Below are positions 17,960 to 64,000 of a stretch of 64,000 nucleotides of DNA, piece after piece. Position numbers and translations under genes: made by a program. The first letter of the stretch is position 1. Every line of letters begins with the position of its first letter. Under the pieces are notes generated by a model that saw only the letters and a program-made list of their open reading frames with translations, was not told the origin of the DNA and did no database searches. The DNA is from a virus, in IMG/VR virus record IMGVR_UViG_3300020395_000002, positions 25,997 to 89,996 of that record, one strand, 5' to 3'.

Positions 17960-20900
17960 ATGCAAATAGAGGAAGGCAGAATTATTGTCCAAGTCTCGAA
18001 AGAGATAGAGGTCGCTACTGTCATTGAACGTGCAAAGCAACGTTTCACATCACTAGCTAACACACACGACCTGACAAGGTTCAAAACACTATTCCTAGAT
18101 TTTCCATCAAGGGATCAGAATTTCATCACTATTTTAAAGAGTGACGAATTTCCAGAGGTTATTGGGGCACATTGGGATGCCAAAATGACCATTAAGAAAC
18201 AAGATTTACAAAACGAAGTCGGAGTAAAGCACGCTGATGCTTTCGAGATGGCAGAAGAGACGTATGATATATCAAATCCCCCAGCTGTTACCCCCAACGA
18301 TCCCTCCCGTGAAGATGTTGCTACATATTCCTCTACCTCTAGTGACACTGCTTCTGCATTAACTGCACAGGTCAAACCATTTTCCTATGGTAGTGTAAGA
18401 CCTTGGAACGGTAGTACTTCTACACTAACATACACAGGTATAGTTAACGTTGGTTCATATGGTCCTAAGTTAGCACTACTATCTGGTGGTGTGATATATG
18501 AGTCTATAGCATTAGACTATATGCTTCCTAACTTTACTATTGTCTTCAGTTTAGCAGATGCTAGTAATGCAGGATATAAGTGGTGCTTCTCTACCACACC
18601 AGACGGTACAAATAATGGTGGTACAGAGTATACAACAGGTGTAACAAGAGTAGGTACTCCAGGAACTGCTGGTTCTTCTGTAAGTATAGCACTTTCAGCA
18701 ACCACACCATTGGAGTTGTATATCTATGAGGATACCACACCTACTATGGGTATGTCTGGATCTTACATACCTTCAACAACATATTCATTTAAAATAACTA
18801 TCTTCAATAAGTGGCATCTACAAAGGATATCACAATCTACAGATAACCTAGGTTATGGTCTCTATTCACTGACTGAAGACGGAGAAAATTCAGATATTTA
18901 CATCCTTGATACTGGTGTTCGTGGTGCATCCCGTCCAGCAGATACTGCTGGTGCTAATTTACACCCAGAATTATATCACCCAGATTATATAAGTGACTTC
19001 AATGGTACTACAGAACAGGCAAACTATCGTGTATATGAGGTACCAGGATATAACTCAGGTATCACATTAAATGGTGAAGCAAATAGTAATGAGGATGACG
19101 ATGGTCACGGTACTCAGTGTGCTATCTGTGCTGCTGGTGTAACCTTTGGTGTAGCTAAGAAAGCACGTATCTTCGCAATGAAGGTATTTAATGAGACTGG
19201 TACTGAGTATACCACGTTTGCATCAAGATATATCAATTGTATGCTAGCTATTGCTAACCATAACGATTCTACTCACGCAAACTGGAAAGGTAATACCCGT
19301 CCAGCAATTGTTAATGCTTCATTAGGTGCTATTATACCTAACAGATACTGGCCATATGTTTATAAGAATGAGCCTGGATTTGATTCTGGTGCTGGTGAGA
19401 GTGATACACTCTTTGATGACTATGAGAACTATCTTATAGAATCTGGTGTTATCTTTGTAAGATCTGCTGGTAATGGATTTACTGATGGCACTTGGGCTGG
19501 TACTTACGGTGGATATCAAGGTAAGTACTTGGTAGGTGTTAGGACTGCTGGTCCTAAGGACAACCTACACAATATGGAAATACCTGATGCTAGTGACAAA
19601 GGTAAGATTACTGTAGGTGCTACTGCACATAATAATAATTTCTCTGCATTCTCTAATTACGGTACGATTACTACCAGTGCTCCTGGTGAGTCAATCTATT
19701 GCCCTAGATGGTATTGGAACAGTGCTACACCATACAACCAGATAAGTTCTTCTTACTACACAAATATTGATGGTACTTCATTCTCTGGTCCTATAACTGC
19801 TGGTGTACTAGCACAGTGGGCTACAAAGATGACATACCAACAGGGTGTTACCTATGAAGGTAAACCTCTACCACAGTTGGCAAAAGAATGGTTACGTAGA
19901 CCATTAGATTGGGATTATATTCGTACATATAATGGTGCGACTGCATCACCTGTTAGCTATGAGTTTGGTGGTGCTAGTGTCCAAACATATCCATCTAATA
20001 CTATCGATGAAATCGTATTCGATGGATTGAATACAACAGTTTCAACTGGTGCTGCTAGTAACGTTCTTACATTCAATTTAGGATCAGAGTTTTCTAGATT
20101 AAACCCTGTTCTTGGTGATCAGATACAGATACGTACACCTATTGGTATTATAGCACAAGATATAATCAGTGATGTATGGGTAACATCTGTAGCGTCACCT
20201 ACTGCTGCATATCATAAAGAGGGTGGACTATTTAATGTTGTTAGTGATAATCATCCAGCTCCAGGTCTTTACGGTGTATTCCCTAAAGCTGGAACATCTG
20301 GATATGTTTCTAACCTTACATTAAGTCAGCAAGGTTCTGGATACACTATAGCACCTGTTGTTTCATTCTCAGGTGGTGGTGGAACGGATGCTACTGCAAC
20401 AGCTCAGATCACACTAACTGGTGGTGGTGTTACAGGTATTAACGTAGATCAGTCTGGTAGTGGATACACAGAGGCACCAACAGTCACAATTAGTGGTGAT
20501 GGTAACGGTGCAACTGCAACTGCAAACATCTCACTTACTGGTGGTGGAATACAAACTGTTACCGTAACTAACGGTGGTAATGGTTACAACCCATTAAACG
20601 TACCAGCTGTTGCCTTCTCAGGCGGTGGTGGAGGTGGTGCAGCTGCAACCGCAGTTGTTACTGATGGTATTGTTACTGGTGTTACTATTACTAATCCAGG
20701 TTCAGGATATACACAGGCACCTTCTGTAACTATTGCAGCTGCAAGTCCTCCAGTTCAAGGAACGACATTTGATATTGCTAATATGTTTGTATCAGGTGGT
20801 GGATCTGTTACAACTGGATCTCTAAACATTGTTAACAATGCATTGACAACTGTTGCGGATAACTTACCACAACCTGCATTGTTTGGATCTTTCCCTAATG

Positions 20901-23900: not shown

Positions 23901-26900
23901 GACCTTATGGTTATTCTGATGAGATGAATGATAGTAGTTCTGTTATTCGTCTTAAGCCTGGCTATATGTTGAAACTAACAGGTAGAACACCTGATGGATA
24001 TCTCAACCGTCCTTCTACTATTTCTTATCCATATAAGGCATTCGTTGAAGACTTTGAGTATCCTGGTAATGAGACAGATGATTTGACTACAACATTCTCA
24101 GTCTCTGTATCTACTGCTGTAAGTACTGGTAGTGGTGGTCGTTACTTCATTAGTGGTGGTGGACTAGATGGTACTCAAGAGAAACCATCATTCAACTTTA
24201 GAAAGGGTAGAAAGTATATCTTTAATCTATCTGATGCATCTCTAACTACTCACGCTATGCTCTTCTCCGTCTATGGTGACGGTACATCACAGGGCTGGCA
24301 CGTTAGTGGACAGAATGCACAGGATGTAAATGCAGTATACACTGCTGGTATTGTTTATAAGTTAGAAGATGTTGAAGTAGATTATGCTGCATACACTGCT
24401 GGCTTTGATACTGCAACTTTAAGATCAGTAGAGATTACTCCAGCGAGTGATGCTCCACAATCAATATTCTATTTCTGCTATAACCATAGTAATATGGGTG
24501 AGAGGATTATTATTGGTGACCTAGACAAGAGAAATGGTCGCTACTGTAAGACTCCTGACTATCCAAATGGTACCTATGCATACTTCATTACTGAAGATGA
24601 TAACGGTGATCCTGCGTTCCCATATGTTATGGGTAGTGAGTATAAGTCAGATCCTTTATTCCCTGGTGATACAGCATACGAGAGTGACTCATTTGTATAT
24701 GATGTTGGTGGTTTAGAATTAAATGTTCTACAAAATTCTTGGCATCAAATTACTGATGTAGATACTGCTAACACTAGCTTCCAGATCACAGCAAATGCTG
24801 CATCATTTACAGCATCAACAAGTGAAACTGGTGGTAATCTATTGAAGGTTGCTAAAATTACTGGTACACACCAAGAAGGTGATGGTATTGCGAAATGGCA
24901 AGCAATTAATCCTACAACTAACAAGTTGTGGTTCCAGACTGAACAGCAAGAGGATGCTGGTGCTGGTGAAGGATCACAGATAATGATCGTTCCAGTAGAT
25001 ACAAGTACAGATCATAATGCACCTGATCAACCTACATCTACAACTAGAGGTGTTATTACACCATACATTGATCTATTAACTACGTGGTACACACCAGCTG
25101 GTTCTCTAGGTACATTTAATATTGGTGAAACAGTTAACGTACAGTTAGGTGTATCATTCTTAAGAACATATGCTAATGAGACTATAGTTGATAGAGATTA
25201 TACTATTAGTTCTTCAGGACCATTTACTACCAGTGGATTGTCATTTGACACAAGTACTGGTGTATTCAGTGGTACCTTAACCAATACAGAAACGCTCGAC
25301 CTAACATTAACAGTCGAAGAAAATATTTCTGGCCAAACTCAGGAGTATACGATTCAACTAACCAACGTCACAACAACTGCTGCTGACCTTGAATTAGTTT
25401 ATGATGTAGGATCAAGAAACGTTGACTACAACTCAGTTAACAAGACCCACGGTCAACCAGATGATAATGTATCTTGGCTTACTGATAACTGGTACTCACG
25501 TCCTATGTTCTACAAGTCATTGTCTATGATGTTGACTCAGAGTGCATATGACAATGATAGATTTGAGTATGTACCATTCTGGCAGATCTATGCTGACAAG
25601 GGTGCTGGTAGTACTTGGTATAACTTGAATGAGTATGCTAATGCTTCTAGTTGTGCATATGAAGATGATGATTTCTTCGATAACAACGTTGATAACAGAA
25701 ATACACATTACTCATACGTTGAGAGATATGAGGATGTAACAGGACGTGAGATGGGATTTGCTCATCTAGTTCTTAACAAGTGGTGGAAATATGCTACTGC
25801 ATTCTTCCGTTGCAAGATGCGTTTCAGACTTAACTTTGACCTTGTAGCAGTTGGTGCTGACTATCAGGTACAAATTAATGCTGGTGGTTCTACAGTGTAT
25901 GAAGTACCTAAGGGAGCATTCTATCGATTTGATATTAGTGATGCATCTTGGGCTGGTAAAACACTAGAGTACAGACTATCAGCAAATGGACTAACATCTA
26001 CTACTAATGTACGTACTTATGGTACTCCAGGTCAAGCAGGTGCTTGGTCTGAGGTTTATATACCTGAGTCATATAGTGCAGCAAGTATCTTCTTTGGACA
26101 GTCTGGTGGTACTACATTTGCATCACAGCATTTAGACTTTACCACTACTTACACTGCTATTGTAAGTTCTACTGCACAGTTAACAGTTACTAACCTACCA
26201 GCATTACCTGCACAGCCAGCATTGACTCTGTATAGTGGTGCTAATTCAATCACTGCTAACTTATTCTCTGCAAATACTGAGTATGGTGGAGAGACACATT
26301 ATCCAAACACAGTTCCTTATCTAACTGCTGGTAAGTCACCTAAGGAAGGTCGTTTCCCTGTTGTCTTGACCTGTACTGACCAGAACATCGAGTACATTTG
26401 GTTTAGTAAGTCATTCTCTTATGATACTGCTGCTGGCACCAAGTCATTTGCTTGGAAGACACAGTACGAGACATATCCTGACTACATTCCTTTAAGTTCT
26501 CCATACTTTAAGTCTAGAAAGGATGCACGTAATAGTACTTCTACAGTATACGATTGTAACTTAGAAGGTAAAGGAATCTATGTAGGTAACTATATTAACA
26601 CTACTGAAGAGTTCCCAGTACGTAATGATTACGGTGGATATAATATTGAGATACCTATTCAAAACCCATCAGCTTTAGCACCACCTAAGGATGCTTCTGG
26701 TAACGTTATGCGTGCCACTGACCTCCCTTGTAATGGTATACCAGCTGGTGTGAACGAACCATATTCATTCCAGTTGTATGTTTACAACGGAACATACTCA
26801 TCACTATCTAATGAGATTAGTGTTATCTCTAACCCACCTGAACTAGGTATGTGGTGGTATGAGTATTCTAATGGATGGACTGGTACTCTATCTAATGGAT

Positions 26901-45363: not shown

Positions 45364-45624
45364 ATGAAAGAAACTGAATCATACGAACAGTTGCTACAAC
45401 GTTTCACGAAGAGAGTGACACAACTGGAAATGAGACAAGTGGAACTGGAAGAAGCACATCTAGAGTATGTGAAACTAGACAGAGAACTTGATCGCCTTGA
45501 AGGGAGTGTACAAGCAGTTGAGTATCTTGCCTTTGGTAAGATGCCTGGTGATGGTAACCACGATGGATTTAAAGCACATAAACCAAAGCCCCAACAGATC
45601 AATGATCTTGGATCACTGGACTGA
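45364..45624 (+). CDS. Small coiled-coil protein
   Basis: Heptad-rich LLQRFTKRVTQLE...LDRELDRLEGSVQAVEYL. Confidence 0.65.
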   Translation: MKETESYEQLLQRFTKRVTQLEMRQVELEEAHLEYVKLDRELDRLEGSVQAVEYLAFGKMPGDGNHDGFKAHKPKPQQINDLGSLD

Positions 45625-45735: not shown

Positions 45736-45912
45736 ATGACAAGGATTAAATTACTACTACTAGCCCCCTTGTTAGTAGGATGTACTAATGCAGGTATGGG
45801 TAGTATCAACTGGAGTAATCCAGGAGTAGCAGACACATATACTTGTGAAGAAGTAACAGATCCAGCATCATATTGTGCAACAGGTGAACATCCTAACCTA
45901 TGTGACTGCTAA
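45736..45912 (+). CDS. Small lipoprotein
   Basis: MTRIKLLLLAPLLVGC signal peptide with lipobox LVG-C; four further Cys; GAGG RBS. Confidence 0.65.
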   Translation: MTRIKLLLLAPLLVGCTNAGMGSINWSNPGVADTYTCEEVTDPASYCATGEHPNLCDC

Positions 45913-46088
45913 TGGCAATGAATGAACAAACTAAACTGTACTTTGCAATGGAACACATCCTTCATTTGGGTGATTTGTTTGAAGGTAATGAGTACCAACA
46001 GTACTTAGAGGGACATCTTGCTTCAATCAGGTATGAGGTAGAGAGACAGACCAAATTGGTAGAAGATAGGAAGGGCATCCGCACGTAG
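45912..46088 (+). CDS. Small hypothetical protein (58 aa)
   Basis: Hand-translated MAMNEQTKLYFAMEHILHLGDLFEGNEYQQYLEGHLASIRYEVERQ...; TAATG coupling. Confidence 0.65.
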   Translation: MAMNEQTKLYFAMEHILHLGDLFEGNEYQQYLEGHLASIRYEVERQTKLVEDRKGIRT

Positions 46089-46110
46089 CTCTCACTGATA
46101 TGACTCAGAG

Positions 46111-46185
46111 TTTTCCACAGGGTTGTGGATAACTTGTGGAAAACCTGTGGAAAACTACGTCAATTAATAAATGTTAAATAAACCA
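46111..46185. promoter_or_regulatory. Cluster of four DnaA boxes plus an AT-rich tract (oriC-like element)
   Basis: TTTTCCACA 46111-19 (+); TGTGGATAA 46124-32, TGTGGAAAA 46135-43 and TGTGGAAAA 46146-54 (reverse orientation, 11-bp spacing); then AATTAATAAATGTTAAATAAA. Confidence 0.65.
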
Positions 46186-46229
46186 TAGTAGGGTGTTCTA
46201 TACCTTGGTTAAGGTTGAGGGATTTGGGG

Positions 46230-46258
46230 GTCTTAGCCCGCAGTCTAGCATTTGTCAA
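46230..46258 (-). promoter_or_regulatory. sigma70-like promoter facing the DnaA-box cluster
   Basis: On the - strand, TTGACA-17 nt-TAAGAC. Confidence 0.4.
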
Positions 46259-46325
46259 CCAAAAACCTCAGAAACTTCAAAAAGTGTAACAATTCGGAAA
46301 TTACGAAACTCAAAAAGTTAAAAAG

Positions 46326-46354
46326 TTGACTTTTTAAGAATAATAAGTTATAAT
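46326..46354 (+). promoter_or_regulatory. Strong sigma70 promoter
   Basis: TTGACT-17 nt-TATAAT upstream of ORF 46375. Confidence 0.75.
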
Positions 46355-46374
46355 AGAATTAAATAATTACTAAA

Positions 46375-46920
46375 ATGCCCGAATTAACCAGTTTAGTAGG
46401 TTACACAGAAGTGCCATCCAGTGCAATTGAGTATTTGGAGTTAGATTTTGACCATAATTATGTTAAAATTACATACAAATCTAACCTAAATGTCCAATAT
46501 TCTTACAAATGTGAAGATTTAGAGGAATTTCAATCATCATTTATGGAACTCAGTGGTAGATTAGAGGCTGAGCAAGACAGAAACGAAGAGGAGGAGCTGG
46601 TAGAAGATGTAAGTACCACTATAGAGAGGGAAGATGCATCTATTGGTAAGTTTATTAACGAACGTATCCAGTCTGGTAATCTGAAGGTTGAATCTAGACT
46701 AGAACAAAACGAGCATATGCTCAATAGGGGTTGGGACGCTTTCCAAGGTAGCACAATGCCCGAAGGTGCCGTGGTCCTGGGTGAGGATGATATCAATTTT
46801 TCACAGCCAGTGGAAACCAGTTCACAAAGTGGCACAAACACGTTCGACATCGATGCTGGAGGGACTATAATAGAAGAGTCAACACCACCAGACCTACCAA
46901 TTCCATATGAGAAAGATTGA
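46375..46920 (+). CDS. Acidic protein with a KTSC-like N-terminal domain
   Basis: VPSSAIEYLELD..HNYVKITYKS...YSY...SIGKFIN resembles KTSC (V.SS.I..V.YD...L.V.F...Y.Y...S.G.YF). Confidence 0.5.
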   Translation: MPELTSLVGYTEVPSSAIEYLELDFDHNYVKITYKSNLNVQYSYKCEDLEEFQSSFMELSGRLEAEQDRNEEEELVEDVSTTIEREDASIGKFINERIQSGNLKVESRLEQNEHMLNRGWDAFQGSTMPEGAVVLGEDDINFSQPVETSSQSGTNTFDIDAGGTIIEESTPPDLPIPYEKD

Positions 46921-48423: not shown

Positions 48424-48471
48424 ACTGTCACCCACCCCCTACTCAGGGGGTTTTTTATTGCTATAATGAAT

Positions 48472-48611
48472 ATGTTGAGGGAAAGTTTAGACGCTAGGCA
48501 GGGGTGAGCAACAATTCAGATGCCGAATGCGTGCACGCTGTGGAAAACTGCTCTTTATGTTTGGAGACCTCTAGTACTCATTGCGAGTTTTGAAGTCGCT
48601 GCCCTCAACAT
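48472..48611 (+). ncRNA. Candidate structured RNA (~140 nt)
   Basis: Perfect 10-bp closing stem ATGTTGAGGG/CCCTCAACAT starting just after a TATAAT. Nested stems AGGGGT/ACCTCT, GAGCA/TGCTC, ATTC/GAAT and ACTC/GAGT. Confidence 0.5.
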
Positions 48612-57432: not shown

Positions 57433-60400
57433 ATGGCAGGTCCAAGTCTAGCAGCACTGATTGAAAGTCAGTTACCTGATTTTGTTGTCGAGGATTATCC
57501 CCTCGTTACGAATTTCCTGTCCAAATATTATGAAGCATTATCAATAAGTGAAGGACCACAGGATATTCTTAACAATTTCGAGAGATATCTTGACGTAGAT
57601 ACATTCTCACCTGAGATTCTTGTTAAGACAGCAAGTTTAGATATAGAAATACCTCTAGGTACTGATAATATTCATATTACAGTCGATTCGACTGATGGAT
57701 TCCCTGATAGTAACGGGATGATAATGATTGATCAGGAAATCTTCCTGTATGAATCTAAAACAGACACACAATTCACTAATTGTGTCCGTGGCTATAGTGC
57801 AAAGACCAAAGTTGGTGACTTATACGAACCAATCAACTTTGTAGAGTCAGTTGCTGCTGTTCATAAGCAGTTTGCAGTTGTCAACAACCTAAGCAACCTT
57901 CTACTGGCTGCTTTAATCAAGAATTACGAAGAACAGTATACTAGCGGTTTCCCATATCCTTATCTTAGAGACACAACAAACAAGAACCTCTTAGTTAAGA
58001 GGATAAAGGACTTCTATAACGTCAAAGGTACACCACAGTCACTGGAGTTCATCTTCCAGATGCTGTTTAGTGTCAAACCTGACATCATCTATCCAAAAGA
58101 GAATGTTTATAAGGCATCTGAGTCTGGATGGAACAATAAAGAGTTATTAGTATGTGAAGTTATATCTGGAGACATTAGAAAGATCGTTGGTAATGAGGTT
58201 ATTCAATCTCCTGATCCATATAACCCCGAACTGACTGCTGCAACTGCTATTATTGACAATATAGTCGGTGAACCTTATCAAGGTAGTCTACAGTACACTT
58301 TAACTATCTCACCTGGTAGTAAAGAGGGTGTATTTGCTATTGCACGTCGTACATTCTTAATGAATGACATTTCTGCCAATGCAGGTCTTGGAGATCGCAT
58401 CGATGTGTTCTCTACTATTGGATTTCCAGAGAAAGATGGTCGTGTAGTCATTGGTACTGAAGAAATTACATATAGTAGTAAGACTGCGACTCAATTTGTC
58501 ATCAAAGAGAGGGATGCAGTCAATTCTGACAACAAACAACTCTATAACCACGAGAAAGGTGTAAGAGCATTTACAAAAAACAACCTTTCAGGTTTTTATA
58601 CTGAAAATGGAGTCCGTAATGAAATAGAACTTCGTATCTATGGTCTTGTATCAGGATTAACCTCTGAAGGTATCGAACCAGAGGCAAGTTCTGGTCTAGA
58701 GTACGATGAAACCGCAGACAACTACTTTGATGTAGCTAGTGGTGGTATTCCTTATGTCTCATTCAACAATATGGTTGAATTTAAGGCATCTGGATTCCAA
58801 GATGACCTTCCATTGTCAAATGAGTGGATTGTCAATCAAAACTTTAGTAAGTTATCAGGTTCTGACCCTAGTAACGTAGGAACTAACAATATTAAGGATA
58901 AAATTCTTTCAGATGTCTCTGCAATCTATAGAGATACTGATAATTACTATATTGCGTCTTCTGGATTCCCATCTTATGCTATAGGACCATTTGACAACAT
59001 AAAAGTACCTGAAGATCAAGAGCATTTAAAGATTCTTCCTAGAGAACCAGTAAATGCAAGCACAAAAGAATTAACAACCTCAGAAGAGGTTGGTGTAATG
59101 GTTAATGGAGTTCCATTATACAATTACAAGTCATCAAGAGGTCTAGATTTCGGTTTACTCGAAAAAATCGAGATTACAGACAGAGGAAGGAATTATAGCG
59201 TACCTCCAAAGGTTATTGTTGAAGGAAATGCCACAGCAGAAGCACAGATTAATGGAATTGGAGAAGTCATAGCTGTAAACGTCACAAATCAAGGTTCTGG
59301 ATACACAACTGCTCCTACAGTTGAATTTACCTCTGGAACTGGTGGAGAATTTACTGTTTTGATTCAGCAAGGTCAAATTGCGAACATTTATCTTTCTGTA
59401 AACCAAAATGCTGAAGTTATAGACGCTGGAACCGATTACACGGAACCACCTGATGTTTTTATCTACGATGCGAGTGGAAAAGGTAGAGGTGCGTTCTATA
59501 CTTGCCAAATAGACACTGTAACAGGTAAGATCACTGGATTCACTCAACAATCTGGTGGATTTGACTATGAGGAAGGTTCTACAACTATTACACTAGTACC
59601 TAAGTCTAGAACTGCTTCAGCAACTGCTGTTTTGACTAGATGGCAGTATAACAGGTACTTAGAGATGTCTGTTGACAATGGTAATGCTGGTGGTATCGTA
59701 GAAATTGCAAATGACCCTAATTATGGTTATTCATATGGTCATATCATTGCTCCTACCTCTTTAAAGATTTTAAGACAGGATAATGTTGATGGTCAGGGTA
59801 ACCCACTCTCTAATAACAGTCATTCTCCAATATTAGGTTGGGCGTATGACGGAAATCCGATATATGGTAGTTTTGGCTATGAAGATCCATATCAAGATGT
59901 TACTGCTGCGAATCCTACTATTAAAAGGATGGAATCCAGCTGGAGACTTAAAGCATCAAGAGGATCTAATGCTCCAGACACAAATACTTACTCATTAGGT
60001 CGTTTTACTAATGATTTCGAGTTTATCGAAAGATTAGGAACACTAGATTCTAATAATGGTCGTTTTTGCACTACACCCGAATTTCCAAACGGTGTATACG
60101 CTTATTTCTTAACTACAGACGATAGTGAGTCTCCTACGTTCCCATATTCGATCGGAGAGGCATTTTACAATGTTCCTGTTGAAGAAAACTGGAAAACTAA
60201 GTCTAAACAAAAATATTTGCCAGATGGAGTCCGTAGAAGAACTGTAAACGCTACAGCAGACACTGGAGAGCTCTTAACGTCTAGAGTTAGTGGAATTGAG
60301 TATGGACCGATCACAGATATCGAAGTTCATCAGTCTTCCTTCAATTTCACGAATGAAGACGTTCTATATGTTGATAATTCCATTAATGACAATGGAGATG

Positions 60401-63400
60401 GATTATTTGCTGCTGTAGACCAAATTCAAGGTCAGCAAGTTGCATCTTTGTCTTGTAACACTCCAAAGAACAATTATTTCACTTGTGACAGGAATGTTTA
60501 CTTAAATCACAATTCTCAACTAACTCAGAACAATACTGGTGCTATAGCTACAGTAATTGGTCTAATTGAAGAGACATCACAGTTTGTTGTAAAAAATGTT
60601 ACAGGTACATTCAATCTTACTGATACAGTTGATTCTACAACTGAGATTTACAATATCACCTTTGATAACACTGTATTAGCAGCAGTTGGTGATAATGTCG
60701 TATTCACTGAACAATCTGGTGGTGTAGCACACGAAGTAGCTATTGGTAAGGTTTTACGTAATGTTGTAGACAAGAATACTGTTATTGTCGAATTACAGGT
60801 TGCTAACCCCAATAAACTCACTACAGTAGACGATGATGGTAATACAGTTACTATACCAAGCACATCATACGCTGAATTGGGATTCTTTGCAGTTGGTAAT
60901 GGTTGTCAAGTCAATACTAGTGCTGCAACCATCGTTAACGTTAGATCTCTATCTAAAGGATTTAAACTTCTAGAAGTTGAAGACAATATTGCAGTTTTAA
61001 AGACAGATAACGTCAGACACGGTTTAGCAGTCGGTGATGATGTCATTGTTACGGTTCAACCTGATTCTACTATCTCTACTCAGAAGTATTATGTTGAGAC
61101 TAAGAAGTATCATACTGTACAATTAAACGAACCTTCAAAAGTCAGTCAGATCAATGGATCTGGGATAGCTAGAGTTAGCATTATCAATGCTGGTAGTGGA
61201 TTTACTCCTAGTACAACCTTTAATGGACTTAATGTTACCAATCAATCTGGTACAGGATCTGCTGGAACCCTTACTGTTACTACTGATGCTGGTGGACACG
61301 TTGTTAGTGCTCAGATCATTACTAAAGGAGATGGATACGAGTATGGTAATATAGTAACTATACAATCTAGTCTTCTAGGTGGTAATGTCAATAGTCAAGA
61401 GGCTACATTCTTTGTAGATGCTGCTGGTTGTGCCAAAACTGATACCATCATAACAGTAACCAGTGGTTCTGGCTACTCTAGAGATGATGTTATTAGAATC
61501 ACTGATGAAGAGTGTCAGATCACTAATGTTACAGGTAATTTCCTAACTGTTATACGTGGTGTTAATGGAACTGAAGCAGAAGATCATATTGAAGGTGTTG
61601 ATGTCGAACTTATAACAAATATTTACAGATTCACTAAGGATTCCAATGTATCATTCAGTGGAAACAATGCTTGGATTGATTCATATGATTCTGAGACTCA
61701 TAAGTTAATTGTTTATTACTTAAATGAAGGAGACACAACAATTGACACTAATTCCACCTTCTTAGATGGTAGTACACCTAATAAACAGGTTTCTATAGCA
61801 AGTGTCGAACCTACTTCCTTAAGATTTAGATTTAGGAAGGATGGACTAACAGAATGGAATAGAAATATCAGTATTGAGTGTCAAAAGACTTATCGTTATC
61901 TTTTTGATACTTCTGATCCATCATTAGTCAATAGAAATCTTAAATTCTACGAAAACGTCTATAGAACTACTGAACTAGTACAAGCGTACCAGTCAACTGT
62001 AAAACCTGGTAATACTGGGTCATTTAGTACGTTCCAACTTGGATATGGTATACCAGTAGACGGTACTACTTGGAAGAGTACACCTGTACTAGACATTCCT
62101 ACCAAAATTTACTATGGAGAGGTATCTGCGAAGATAGATGCTGAAGATCAGTTCTTTACTCTTGTAGAAGACCCATTTGCAGGTAAGCACGCTGTATTCT
62201 ATGGCTATGAGTACGAATTTGCTTATAGGTTAAAGCAGACTCCTCAAAATGAAGGATTTACAAATGTTCAATATTATACCGACTCTCTATACGCTGTAGG
62301 AGCGATTAAGAGGGTTAAAGTCATCAGTGGTGGTAAAAACTATACGATGCCACCTCAAGTGCCTGGTGTCTTCTTAAACAAGCGTTTTAGAGGTGCATTT
62401 ACTGTTAATCTTACTGAAGGACGTATTACATCAGTTACAGTTACAGATACTGGATTAAATTACTCTAAACCCATTGTATTGCTTGAAAATAGGGGTGATG
62501 GAGCAAATGCTAAGTTTACAATCGAATTAAGGGCAGATGGATCGGTTTCTCGTATTATTCCGATTGATGAAGGAGTTAATTACGCAGATACGACTACTTT
62601 ACGACTTTATGAGTCAGATACTAAGTTATTTGCTCAAGGAACTGATATTGGTAAGTTGGCAACCCTAGAAATCATATCTTCGGGTAAAGACTTCAATAAT
62701 GACCCAACTTTAGCACCTCAAGTCAATCCACCCATTGTTATGACTCTAAGAGATATGCCCGACAAGGCATTCTTGAATGGAGAGCTAATAACGCAAAGAA
62801 ACTTAGCTGGAGATATGATTGCTTCTGGTAGAGTTGATTACTGGGTTGATGGAATGAATATTCTTCGTTTGAAGGGTATCTACGGAAAATTCGATTCTAG
62901 GTATCAAATCTACGGTGAGACACTTCGTGCTACTGCAAGTATCCAAGTTATCTACGTAGCTAACATAACTCCGCAAATTGGACCTACAAGTACTTCAGTT
63001 GGTTCATATTCGAGTGATAGAAGTAAATTAAGTGCTGTTTCACAGAAAGTCCAAGATGGAGTCTATTATCAAGATTATTCTTACGTAGTTAAGTCTACAG
63101 TCTCTATTAACGATTGGAGAGACTTTGTTAAGCGTTTTACCCATCCAGCTGGATTTAACCTCTTTGGAGAAGTCTTAATTGAGTCTCAAGGTGATGGAAC
63201 ACAACCAGAGACCATAGACACTCCTCAAAGTGGCACAAAGGACAATGGATACGGTGCGGTGATGAGTATCATCGAACCTGGCGTTTTAGGTGTTACTTGT
63301 GCTCATAAGTCGAGAAGAATCACTCAATCTCACGTTAGAGTCGATTCTATGTCGAAACAACGTGGTACAGGAACTATTAACTATAGTGAACAGAATAACG

Positions 63401-64000
63401 TTGAAATTGAAGTATTTGACCTAGCAATCTCACCAGCCTTCGATGGTGCTGTTCAAGCAGATGGTACAATCACTGGTACGACTCAATTTACATTATTCAA
63501 GAAAGATATCAATGAGGTGCTTGTTCCGTTCAGAGCAACTCAATTAGTCGTTACATTGGACGGTGTTCTTCAGGATCCTGATACTGCGTATACAGTTGCT
63601 GGATCTACCATTACATTCGCTTCTGCACCATTAGGACCATATACTGATCCTAGTACTGGTATATTTGTACCAGGCGTGACTTTCTACGGAAAGTCGATGA
63701 AATTCCAAGATGATGCGAATAATGCCGAATATATGCGAGAAGCGAACAATATCACTTCTCTATTCGATGGTACTACTGTAGAATTCGATTTAGGCATTCC
63801 TATTGTAGATGGAGACCATTTATACGTTTCTTTAGATGGTGTTATCCAGGAACCCGATGTTGCCTTTACTTTAACAACTAATCCTGGAAATGGTAAAATA
63901 ACCTTTACAGAACCACCTAGACAGGTTGGTAAGATTGTAGAACTTGAAATTGGTGATGCAACCAACTGGCTAGTAAATGACTATGTTGTTGGACAAACTT
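57433..64000 (+). CDS. gp7: Giant baseplate wedge initiator, gp7-like (3'-truncated; absent from the ORF track because no stop falls in the window)
   Basis: Starts MAGPSLAALIESQLPDFVVEDYP..TNFLSKYYE right after gp6. Motifs KRIKDFYNVKGT, HSPILGWAYDGNPIYG and YYQDYSYVVKS...HPAGFNLFGE. The frame is open at the points I checked, including the window end. Confidence 0.8.
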   Translation, partial: MAGPSLAALIESQLPDFVVEDYPLVTNFLSKYYEALSISEGPQDILNNFERYLDVDTFSPEILVKTASLDIEIPLGTDNIHITVDSTDGFPDSNGMIMIDQEIFLYESKTDTQFTNCVRGYSAKTKVGDLYEPINFVESVAAVHKQFAVVNNLSNLLLAALIKNYEEQYTSGFPYPYLRDTTNKNLLVKRIKDFYNVKGTPQSLEFIFQMLFSVKPDIIYPKENVYKASESGWNNKELLVCEVISGDIRKIVGNEVIQSPDPYNPELTAATAIIDNIVGEPYQGSLQYTLTISPGSKEGVFAIARRTFLMNDISANAGLGDRIDVFSTIGFPEKDGRVVIGTEEITYSSKTATQFVIKERDAVNSDNKQLYNHEKGVRAFTKNNLSGFYTENGVRNEIELRIYGLVSGLTSEGIEPEASSGLEYDETADNYFDVASGGIPYVSFNNMVEFKASGFQDDLPLSNEWIVNQNFSKLSGSDPSNVGTNNIKDKILSDVSAIYRDTDNYYIASSGFPSYAIGPFDNIKVPEDQEHLKILPREPVNASTKELTTSEEVGVMVNGVPLYNYKSSRGLDFGLLEKIEITDRGRNYSVPPKVIVEGNATAEAQINGIGEVIAVNVTNQGSGYTTAPTVEFTSGTGGEFTVLIQQGQIANIYLSVNQNAEVIDAGTDYTEPPDVFIYDASGKGRGAFYTCQIDTVTGKITGFTQQSGGFDYEEGSTTITLVPKSRTASATAVLTRWQYNRYLEMSVDNGNAGGIVEIANDPNYGYSYGHIIAPTSLKILRQDNVDGQGNPLSNNSHSPILGWAYDGNPIYGSFGYEDPYQDVTAANPTIKRMESSWRLKASRGSNAPDTNTYSLGRFTNDFEFIERLGTLDSNNGRFCTTPEFPNGVYAYFLTTDDSESPTFPYSIGEAFYNVPVEENWKTKSKQKYLPDGVRRRTVNATADTGELLTSRVSGIEYGPITDIEVHQSSFNFTNEDVLYVDNSINDNGDGLFAAVDQIQGQQVASLSCNTPKNNYFTCDRNVYLNHNSQLTQNNTGAIATVIGLIEETSQFVVKNVTGTFNLTDTVDSTTEIYNITFDNTVLAAVGDNVVFTEQSGGVAHEVAIGKVLRNVVDKNTVIVELQVANPNKLTTVDDDGNTVTIPSTSYAELGFFAVGNGCQVNTSAATIVNVRSLSKGFKLLEVEDNIAVLKTDNVRHGLAVGDDVIVTVQPDSTISTQKYYVETKKYHTVQLNEPSKVSQINGSGIARVSIINAGSGFTPSTTFNGLNVTNQSGTGSAGTLTVTTDAGGHVVSAQIITKGDGYEYGNIVTIQSSLLGGNVNSQEATFFVDAAGCAKTDTIITVTSGSGYSRDDVIRITDEECQITNVTGNFLTVIRGVNGTEAEDHIEGVDVELITNIYRFTKDSNVSFSGNNAWIDSYDSETHKLIVYYLNEGDTTIDTNSTFLDGSTPNKQVSIASVEPTSLRFRFRKDGLTEWNRNISIECQKTYRYLFDTSDPSLVNRNLKFYENVYRTTELVQAYQSTVKPGNTGSFSTFQLGYGIPVDGTTWKSTPVLDIPTKIYYGEVSAKIDAEDQFFTLVEDPFAGKHAVFYGYEYEFAYRLKQTPQNEGFTNVQYYTDSLYAVGAIKRVKVISGGKNYTMPPQVPGVFLNKRFRGAFTVNLTEGRITSVTVTDTGLNYSKPIVLLENRGDGANAKFTIELRADGSVSRIIPIDEGVNYADTTTLRLYESDTKLFAQGTDIGKLATLEIISSGKDFNNDPTLAPQVNPPIVMTLRDMPDKAFLNGELITQRNLAGDMIASGRVDYWVDGMNILRLKGIYGKFDSRYQIYGETLRATASIQVIYVANITPQIGPTSTSVGSYSSDRSKLSAVSQKVQDGVYYQDYSYVVKSTVSINDWRDFVKRFTHPAGFNLFGEVLIESQGDGTQPETIDTPQSGTKDNGYGAVMSIIEPGVLGVTCAHKSRRITQSHVRVDSMSKQRGTGTINYSEQNNVEIEVFDLAISPAFDGAVQADGTITGTTQFTLFKKDINEVLVPFRATQLVVTLDGVLQDPDTAYTVAGSTITFASAPLGPYTDPSTGIFVPGVTFYGKSMKFQDDANNAEYMREANNITSLFDGTTVEFDLGIPIVDGDHLYVSLDGVIQEPDVAFTLTTNPGNGKITFTEPPRQVGKIVELEIGDATNWLVNDYVVGQT

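Follow-up and report, generated by a model that had tools for sequence, protein, structure and literature searches.

Introduction

T4-type phages are the textbook case of replication that is independent of the host initiator. Iteron-type plasmid origins and the oriR origin of phage P1 combine DnaA boxes with iterons, an AT-rich region, and a rep gene. We know of no cyanomyovirus in which a replication origin has been mapped. Here, we describe four closely packed DnaA boxes, predicted to dock the host replication initiator DnaA, in an intergenic gap of a T4-like cyanomyovirus. The DNA is a 64,000-nucleotide stretch, positions 25,997 to 89,996 of IMG/VR record IMGVR_UViG_3300020395_000002, and this whole stretch is called the window; coordinates are those of the window unless another genome is named. 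A preliminary interpretation of the letters (the original prediction) had called the element oriC-like, and had read it either as an origin assisted by host DnaA or as a sink that titrates DnaA. Full-text literature searches found no published description of a DnaA-box array in cyanophages, and a term search in a large comparative-genome paper on cyanomyoviruses gave no mention of DnaA or of a replication origin (PMC3037559).

The two best-studied origins of T4, oriF (uvsY) and oriG (gene 34), are each made up of a promoter and, downstream of it and within about 100 bp, an AT-rich unwinding element. Origins of higher activity in T4 are located close to points where transcription diverges, and the unwinding elements need no specific sequence (excerpt of PMC3016281). 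In cyanobacterial oriC, a non-coding region next to dnaN holds a cluster of boxes with the sequence TTTTCCACA, the DnaA box that is called 'species-specific' for cyanobacteria (excerpt of PMC4674748). In bacterial chromosomal origins, DnaA-trios, with the sequence 3'-[G/A]A[T/A]-5' in more than three copies, follow a GC cluster next to the boxes (PMC7561715). In the DnaA-reactivating sequences (DARS), a 5-bp spacer separates box I from the opposed box II, box III points the same way as box II, and a further box III' may or may not be present (excerpt of PMC6868365). E. coli datA, a locus of DnaA titration and DnaA-ATP hydrolysis, has an essential integration host factor (IHF) site between its DnaA boxes, and the ColE1 origin is a mobile element with a DARS, extra copies of which lower the initiation mass (excerpt of PMC5835720). 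Among lytic phages, the closest precedent is the conserved set of DnaA boxes in the injection-stop (iss) region of T5-like phages, for which the role is hypothetical (excerpt of bioRxiv 10.1101/866236).

Results and Discussion

Four perfect DnaA boxes lie inside 44 bp (46111–46154), and the starts of the last three are exactly 11 bp apart (Table 1). Each box has the place, orientation, and phasing that the original prediction gave it, and the same is true of the AT stretch with a single G/C, the TTGACA-17-TAAGAC sequence on the minus strand, the two direct repeats, and the inverted repeat over the −35 of the divergent promoter. The gap that holds them, 286 bp (46089–46374), is indeed the longest gene-free one in its island of small genes on a crude map of open reading frames (ORFs). 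The total of TTWTNCACA sites, which had been proposed as a check, is not raised in the window (6 found versus 8.8 ± 2.7 expected); it is their clustering that is extreme, since 4 of the 6 fall within the 44 bp. For TTWTCCACA, 4 of the 5 sites of the whole 89,996-bp contig are in the array, and by our own arithmetic about 1.4 are expected in 90 kb, both strands counted. A terminator-like hairpin with a T-run (48430–48458) is followed, about 90 bp on, by a lone TTTTCCACA box (48539–48547); this site was rejected, since no second box accompanies it and its occurrence is at chance level.

Table 1. Coordinates of the array, the other parts of the cassette, the flanking genes, and the corresponding arrays in isolates
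Feature	Genome	Position	Strand	Remarks
Upstream small ORF, 58 aa	window	45912–46088	+	stop codon 22 bp ahead of box 1; unmatched in PHROG and Pfam
DnaA box 1, TTTTCCACA	window	46111–46119	+	lone box in plus orientation; invariant in 14 unique homologous sequences
DnaA box 2, TTATCCACA	window	46124–46132	−	4 bp from box 1, CACA ends facing; only the W position varies
DnaA box 3, TTTTCCACA	window	46135–46143	−	2 bp after box 2
DnaA box 4, TTTTCCACA	window	46146–46154	−	2 bp after box 3; invariant
Whole array as nested palindrome	window	46109–46156		box 1 and flank pair with box 4 and flank; 16-nt arms, 94% complementary
AT-rich tract, 1 G/C in 21 nt	window	46162–46182		among the easiest places in the window to melt
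Conserved AT motif, AAATGTTAAATAAACCATA then GTGTTCT	window	46170–46199		related forms in S-PM2, S-RIM32, Syn9, P-RSM6, and box-less cassettes
Promoter-like TTGACA-17-TAAGAC	window	46230–46258	−	reads toward AT tract and boxes; single-copy in contig
Direct repeats GAAACT(T)CAAAAAGT	window	46271–46285 and 46305–46318	+	from repeat search
Inverted repeat TTAAAAAGT/ACTTTTTAA	window	46318–46326 / 46329–46337		overlaps −35 of plus-strand early promoter
Sigma-70-type early promoter TTGACT-17-TATAAT	window	46326–46354	+	11/12 consensus matches
Downstream gene, 181 aa, phrog_4357	window	46375–46920	+	predicted KTSC-like fold, acidic insert, C-terminal extension
Array	S-PM2	19231–19264		same cassette parts; spacers 4 and 3 bp
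Array	S-RIM32	60807–60841, plus pair 1 kb further on		same cassette parts; spacers 5 and 3 bp
Boxes	Syn9	52565/52589		same cassette parts

The conservation of the boxes was assessed in a sample that was blind to them. IMG/VR was scanned with the neighbouring 19-nt AT motif, the boxes being excluded, and 20 loci were obtained, of which 14 are homologous to the window and six (L125, L128, L130, L134, L135, and L138) were set aside as unrelated. The 14 homologous loci and the window gave an alignment of 15 sequences, 14 of them unique. All 14 homologous loci have four perfect boxes. Of the 36 box columns, only 2 are variable, and these are degenerate W positions, versus 7 of the 8 spacer columns, 14 of the 25 columns of the left flank, and 10 of the 14 columns between box 4 and the AT motif. 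Because the box columns are kept while the spacers and flanks drift, the boxes appear to be under selection. The 4-nt spacer between the opposed boxes (46123–46124) is GGGT in some relatives and the complement, ACCC, in others, which looks as if the small loop between these boxes had been inverted. In four of the unrelated loci (L125, L128, L130, and L134), the 19-nt AT motif comes right after a GC-rich hairpin, and there are no DnaA boxes.

Which protein reads the boxes? In the cassettes that were picked by the promoter-like motif alone and have two or more boxes, 78 of the 82 perfect boxes are TTTTCCACA, among the matches listed. At 99 other unique viral loci with a triple array, 253 of 300 listed boxes are TTATCCACA. 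Since the variant in the cassettes is the cyanobacterial form, the host DnaA is the most likely reader. The conservation pattern supports the view that the boxes behave as real, selected sites for host DnaA, and the four 9-mers are very probably a docking array for this protein, as predicted from their sequence. Thus, the part of the original prediction that assigned the boxes to host DnaA is borne out by their conservation, by the box variant, and by their recurrence in other genomes.

The cassette around the boxes is common to S-PM2, S-RIM32, Syn9, and many uncultured cyanomyoviruses. A BLAST search of the gap against 50,697 phage records matched 117; the label is Synechococcus for 73 of them, Cyanophage for 13, and Prochlorococcus for 2. 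Among the cyanophages, the listed matches align to the box region and are nearly all in unannotated DNA; the exceptions are two S-PM2 records, which have tRNA features there, and Syn1, which has one hypothetical protein. In S-PM2 record AJ630128 (2451–2607 of our locus L140), tRNA-Asn and tRNA-Leu are annotated directly over the DnaA-box array. The re-sequenced S-PM2 genome, LN828717, has no feature over the array, and the tRNA calls of AJ630128 look doubtful. The search also matched the array-bearing T7-like phages phiEap-1 and P483 and records of Microviridae. As the median intergenic length in S-PM2 is 6 bp (excerpt of PMC5931967), a conserved gap this large is unusual.

Besides the boxes, the parts that S-PM2, S-RIM32, and Syn9 have in common are the AT-rich motif AAATGtTAAAtAAAcCATAg followed by GTGTTC, the plus-strand early promoter, and a block GTCTTAGCnCG, spacer, TTGTCAA, which is TTGACA-17-TAAGAC on the minus strand. 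There is exactly one copy of this promoter-like block in each of our contig, S-PM2, and S-RIM32, always beside the array; the strict pattern used for this count does not match the variants in Syn9 and P-RSM6. A repeated regulatory cassette was, therefore, rejected, as the promoter-like motif is single-copy in the three genomes and the palindrome of the early promoter, TTAAAAAGT/ACTTTTTAA, has no second copy in the window. The TCTTAGC motif was also considered as a Pho box and rejected, because the locus is not among the 14 up-regulated genes given in the phosphate-stress study of S-PM2d (excerpt of PMC10976474).

When IMG/VR was scanned with the promoter-like block alone, at least 115 unique segments were found, 80 of low GC and 35 of high GC and chance type. 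Among the matches listed, two or more perfect boxes are present within 220 nt on the transcribed side in 32 of the 80 low-GC segments, one box in 2, and none in 46; none of the 35 chance-type matches has two boxes. Ten isolate genomes were searched whole, and S-PM2, S-RIM32, P-SSM7, and Syn9 have a cluster of perfect boxes. Both the position of the boxes in the cassette and their layout vary between lineages, the common denominator being an opposed pair with the CACA ends facing. In the 32 unique listed cassettes, the layout is a lone opposed pair 14 bp apart in 9, this pair with further boxes in 8, and that of the window (4, 2, and 2 bp) in 3. By sequence comparison, then, the boxes are an optional module on a conserved, single-copy intergenic cassette. 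For the original prediction, which had proposed conservation in related phages as a check, this result cuts both ways: the boxes are conserved in the homologous loci that were aligned, but they are optional among cyanomyoviruses.

The other elements of the cassette lie on the right of the array. The 20-bp window of the AT-rich tract ranks 28 of 63,981 in a scan for low stacking energy, but the tract is short, and at the 60-bp scale the region is within the least stable 2.3% only. The minus-strand motif has TTGACA at 46258–46253, a 17-nt spacer, and TAAGAC at 46235–46230, which would put the AT tract 41–61 nt downstream of the predicted start. We call this motif promoter-like because it is conserved, and not for its score.

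We tentatively favour the interpretation that the cassette is a DnaA-assisted or DnaA-timed, transcript-primed early origin of the T4 oriF/oriG type. This is because a single-copy cassette combines a promoter-like element with an unusually meltable tract, which resembles the architecture of the two best-studied T4 origins. On the array, the three head-to-tail boxes with 2-bp spacers would put DnaA molecules on one face of the helix, and in E. coli oriC this spacing supports oligomers of DnaA; the fourth, inverted box would close the array. In the proposed mechanism, the minus-strand promoter-like element would send a transcript into the AT tract, where it could stay annealed as an R-loop and prime the phage DNA polymerase. 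DnaA beside the AT tract may help to bend or open the DNA, or may tie firing to the replication state of the host. From these sequence features, we infer DnaA binding, minus-strand transcription, R-loop formation, and a role in replication; the virus probably docks host DnaA at the array, which is perhaps also the site where its replication starts.

Like oriF and oriG, the cassette is a compact non-coding unit of about 100–150 bp in a T4-type genome, in which a promoter-like element would read into an easily melted AT tract near a divergence of transcription; the gene divergence point is about 1 kb to the left. However, the T4 origins use MotA-dependent middle promoters and no host initiator, while the cassette has a sigma-70-type motif with a poor −10, and DnaA boxes.

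A number of observations weigh against an origin at this site. The −10 sequence, TAAGAC, matches 3 of the 6 consensus positions and lacks the usually essential final T; for this reason, a consensus promoter scan did not list the minus-strand TTGACA-17-TAAGAC. The AT element is conserved in sequence in the cassette, whereas the T4 unwinding elements have no sequence need, which suggests that a protein or a promoter reads the motif. The RNA data, which are assembled metatranscriptome contigs with no strand information and with possible DNA carry-over, leave the region of the predicted minus-strand RNA uncovered (46130–46220, in these assembled contigs), which is no sign that such an RNA is absent. 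They give a weak hint that a plus-strand transcript starting near the AT motif fits at least as well. GC skew, proposed in the original prediction as a further sign of an origin, follows gene orientation only and has no switch at the boxes. No cluster of perfect boxes was found in 6 of the 10 isolates (P-RSM6, P-SSM4, S-RSM4, P-HM2, P-SSM2, and S-SSM7), and the box-less cassettes of P-RSM6, L376, L392, and L419 have kept both the AT motif and the minus-strand promoter-like element. Finally, no run of three or more DnaA-trios is present on either strand in 46040–46270, so it is unlikely that DnaA opens the DNA at the array as it does in oriC.

The cassette is no copy of oriC, judging from the lack of DnaA-trios beside the boxes and of dnaA or dnaN nearby. 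There is no Bac_DnaA match in the contig, and the neighbours are small phage genes without dnaN. The array does have a cluster of host-consensus boxes in non-coding DNA, as cyanobacterial oriC has, and 3 of its 4 boxes are TTTTCCACA. However, oriC sits next to dnaN, while the phage array has no such neighbour and no trio run, is optional among relatives, and differs in layout between lineages. For these reasons, the label 'oriC-like' of the original prediction was dropped.

An iteron-type origin or P1 oriR is similar in that DnaA boxes, an AT-rich tract, and short direct repeats are found side by side, with a small gene after them. This candidate does not fit, because there are only two direct repeats, where such origins have three or more iterons, and the KTSC-like protein encoded after the cassette is unlike Rep initiators. 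With the iss region of T5, the array has in common precisely arranged host DnaA boxes in inverted repeats, in non-coding DNA of a strictly lytic phage. T5, though, has eight boxes, in pairs 3 bp apart, located in the terminal repeat, and these are proposed to halt DNA injection at the membrane (excerpt of bioRxiv 10.1101/866236), whereas T4-like phages have no fixed ends and no two-step injection.

We ranked the explanations of the cassette with the origin first, DnaA-controlled transcription second, manipulation of the host DnaA pool third, and a hairpin or a site for a phage protein last. The second of these is somewhat doubtful. The AT motif and TTGACA-17-TAAGAC would be back-to-back promoters, with DnaA as a repressor, activator, or roadblock, which is conceivable since DnaA is already known as a transcription factor (excerpt of PMC8203912). 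DnaA would then set the level of the transcript of the KTSC-like gene or of a short antisense RNA, or would insulate two blocks of early genes from each other, and phage expression would follow the host DnaA level and hence the cell-cycle or diel state. Between the end of the array and the TAAATA core of the AT motif there are 20 bp, and a box directly adjoins this motif in other lineages (L366); these are classical positions for a regulator. Furthermore, RNA contigs of two studies begin at about 46215–46235 (at 46221 or 46235 in those that run rightwards) and continue through the plus-strand early promoter into the gene, and one 1,424-nt metatranscriptome contig ends at about 46215. Of 72 IMG/VR loci with an array, 26 have a phrog_4357 homologue, with protein identity down to 27–45%, at a distance of 230–460 bp from the array, and the gene following the array is of this family in the window, S-PM2, and S-RIM32. 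However, other genes follow the cassette in Syn9 and P-RSM6, and 46 of the 72 loci, some of them cut by contig ends, have no phrog_4357 ORF within reach. With the boxes 170–215 bp upstream of it, the strong early promoter is also too distant for direct control.

Manipulation of the host DnaA pool is unlikely. In this explanation, the arrays, multiplying with the phage DNA, would act as a datA-like sink or as DARS-type sites that recharge ADP-DnaA, and either effect would shift host initiation to the benefit of the phage. The resemblance to the E. coli DARS1 core is real. In the bioD-uvrB spacer of MG1655, this core reads TTATCCACt, 5 bp, TGTGGATAA, 3 bp, TGTGtATtA, and it has the same order and orientation as the array, in that a single box is opposed to a series of two or three direct ones, with the CACA ends turned toward each other and short spacers between the boxes. 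The spacers are 5 and 3 bp in DARS1, 4, 2, and 2 bp in the window, 4 and 3 bp in S-PM2, and, as in DARS1, 5 and 3 bp in S-RIM32. DARS1 boxes I and III each have one mismatch, whereas the boxes of the window are all perfect. The DARS of the ColE1 origin, with its effect on initiation mass, is a precedent on a mobile element. If the array were, by analogy with DARS1, a phage-borne DARS-type element, which we consider improbable, spent host DnaA would lose its ADP there and be turned back into ATP-DnaA in the course of infection. The initiator cycle of the host would thus be reset by a strictly lytic T4-like phage, whether for the firing of the phage cassette or to let host-type initiation run on outside the normal diel phase.

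We keep this as a minority interpretation because most related cassettes differ in layout: the opposed pair 14 bp apart is the commonest form among those listed, and the DARS-like layout of the window is not kept in relatives beyond the 3 of 32 given above. To our knowledge, DARS, datA, and RIDA (regulatory inactivation of DnaA) have not been demonstrated in cyanobacteria. The boxes, being 2–4 bp apart, leave no room for the IHF site of datA. Furthermore, a constant neighbour and a limit of one site per genome are not required of a sink, and the constant place of the array next to a single-copy promoter-like cassette agrees better with an origin or control element than with a plain sink.

It is very unlikely that the 9-mers are read by some other protein, such as one of the phage, or that the palindrome is a mere hairpin (a transcript end or recombination site, for example) whose likeness to DnaA boxes is incidental: a single strand of the array does fold as a 13-bp hairpin beyond shuffled controls (z = −4.1 as DNA, and z = −3.2 for the predicted 131-nt minus-strand RNA), directly after the stop codon of the upstream gene, but one opposed pair would suffice for this and compensated changes would be tolerated, yet all four 9-mers keep the consensus with variation at the degenerate W position alone, the tandem boxes with 2-bp spacers add nothing to the hairpin, and the box variant tracks the host phylum. 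An intrinsic terminator was rejected because no T-run follows the stem on either strand.

As a conserved, single-copy, predicted docking site for host DnaA, the array gives a concrete place to look for the origin of a cyanomyovirus. It also suggests a way in which these viruses, abundant in the ocean, might sense the replication state or the diel state of Prochlorococcus and Synechococcus. The idea is directly testable because the element is present in S-PM2, Syn9, and S-RIM32, which are culturable and genetically tractable.

Phased DnaA-box arrays are a recurrent feature of many unrelated viral or plasmid-like contigs. In IMG/VR, at least 119 other viral contigs, with GC contents from 0.27 to 0.68, contain three perfect boxes with a phasing of 11 bp, and several groups of these triple arrays have flanks in common, for example, loci with GC of 0.6–0.68 and a group from a single sample with GC of about 0.5. 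Because these contigs are of very different base composition, viruses may draw on DnaA far more widely than the few studied cases show.

Neighbouring Genes and Genome Context

Members of the phrog_4357 family are typically 74–83 aa long and are found beside the array in several cyanophage lineages. A structure model of the 181-aa protein, built with 13 sequences, has a mean pLDDT of 69.8, with high values in the core, and its best, though weak, structural matches are to the KTSC family, 7x8c (target TM-score 0.70, E = 0.28) and 4rgi. A Pfam search with this protein gave no match, to a Rep family or to any other. The predicted complex of the KTSC-like protein with DnaA of Synechococcus WH7803 had a score of 0.00, which counts neither for nor against an interaction.

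The window is from a T4-like cyanomyovirus and has tail-fibre, baseplate, and 2-oxoglutarate-Fe(II) oxygenase genes; its nearest database relatives are phages of Prochlorococcus and Synechococcus. The contig of 89,996 bp has a CheckV completeness estimate of 47%. No known RNA families or tRNAs were found in the window. Two short ORFs in the gap, of 32 aa on the minus strand and 42 aa on the plus strand, were rejected as genes because their reading frames are not kept in relatives. The 32-aa frame has an in-frame stop in the L029 clade, where, in our own reading of the alignment, the nucleotides are still conserved, and the 42-aa frame has a stop 3 codons in, in S-PM2.

In this neighbourhood, only the small gene at 45364–45624 (phrog_10366; T4-like gene cluster 415) matches isolates at the DNA level. 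It is in quite different contexts in P-SSM7, P-SSM4, and P-RSM4, as would be expected for a mobile small gene, and it is the sole piece in common when the synteny of the window is compared with these three phages. At the right end, an ORF of more than 2,189 codons (57433–63999) runs off the window and has short DNA matches to gp7 baseplate and structural genes.

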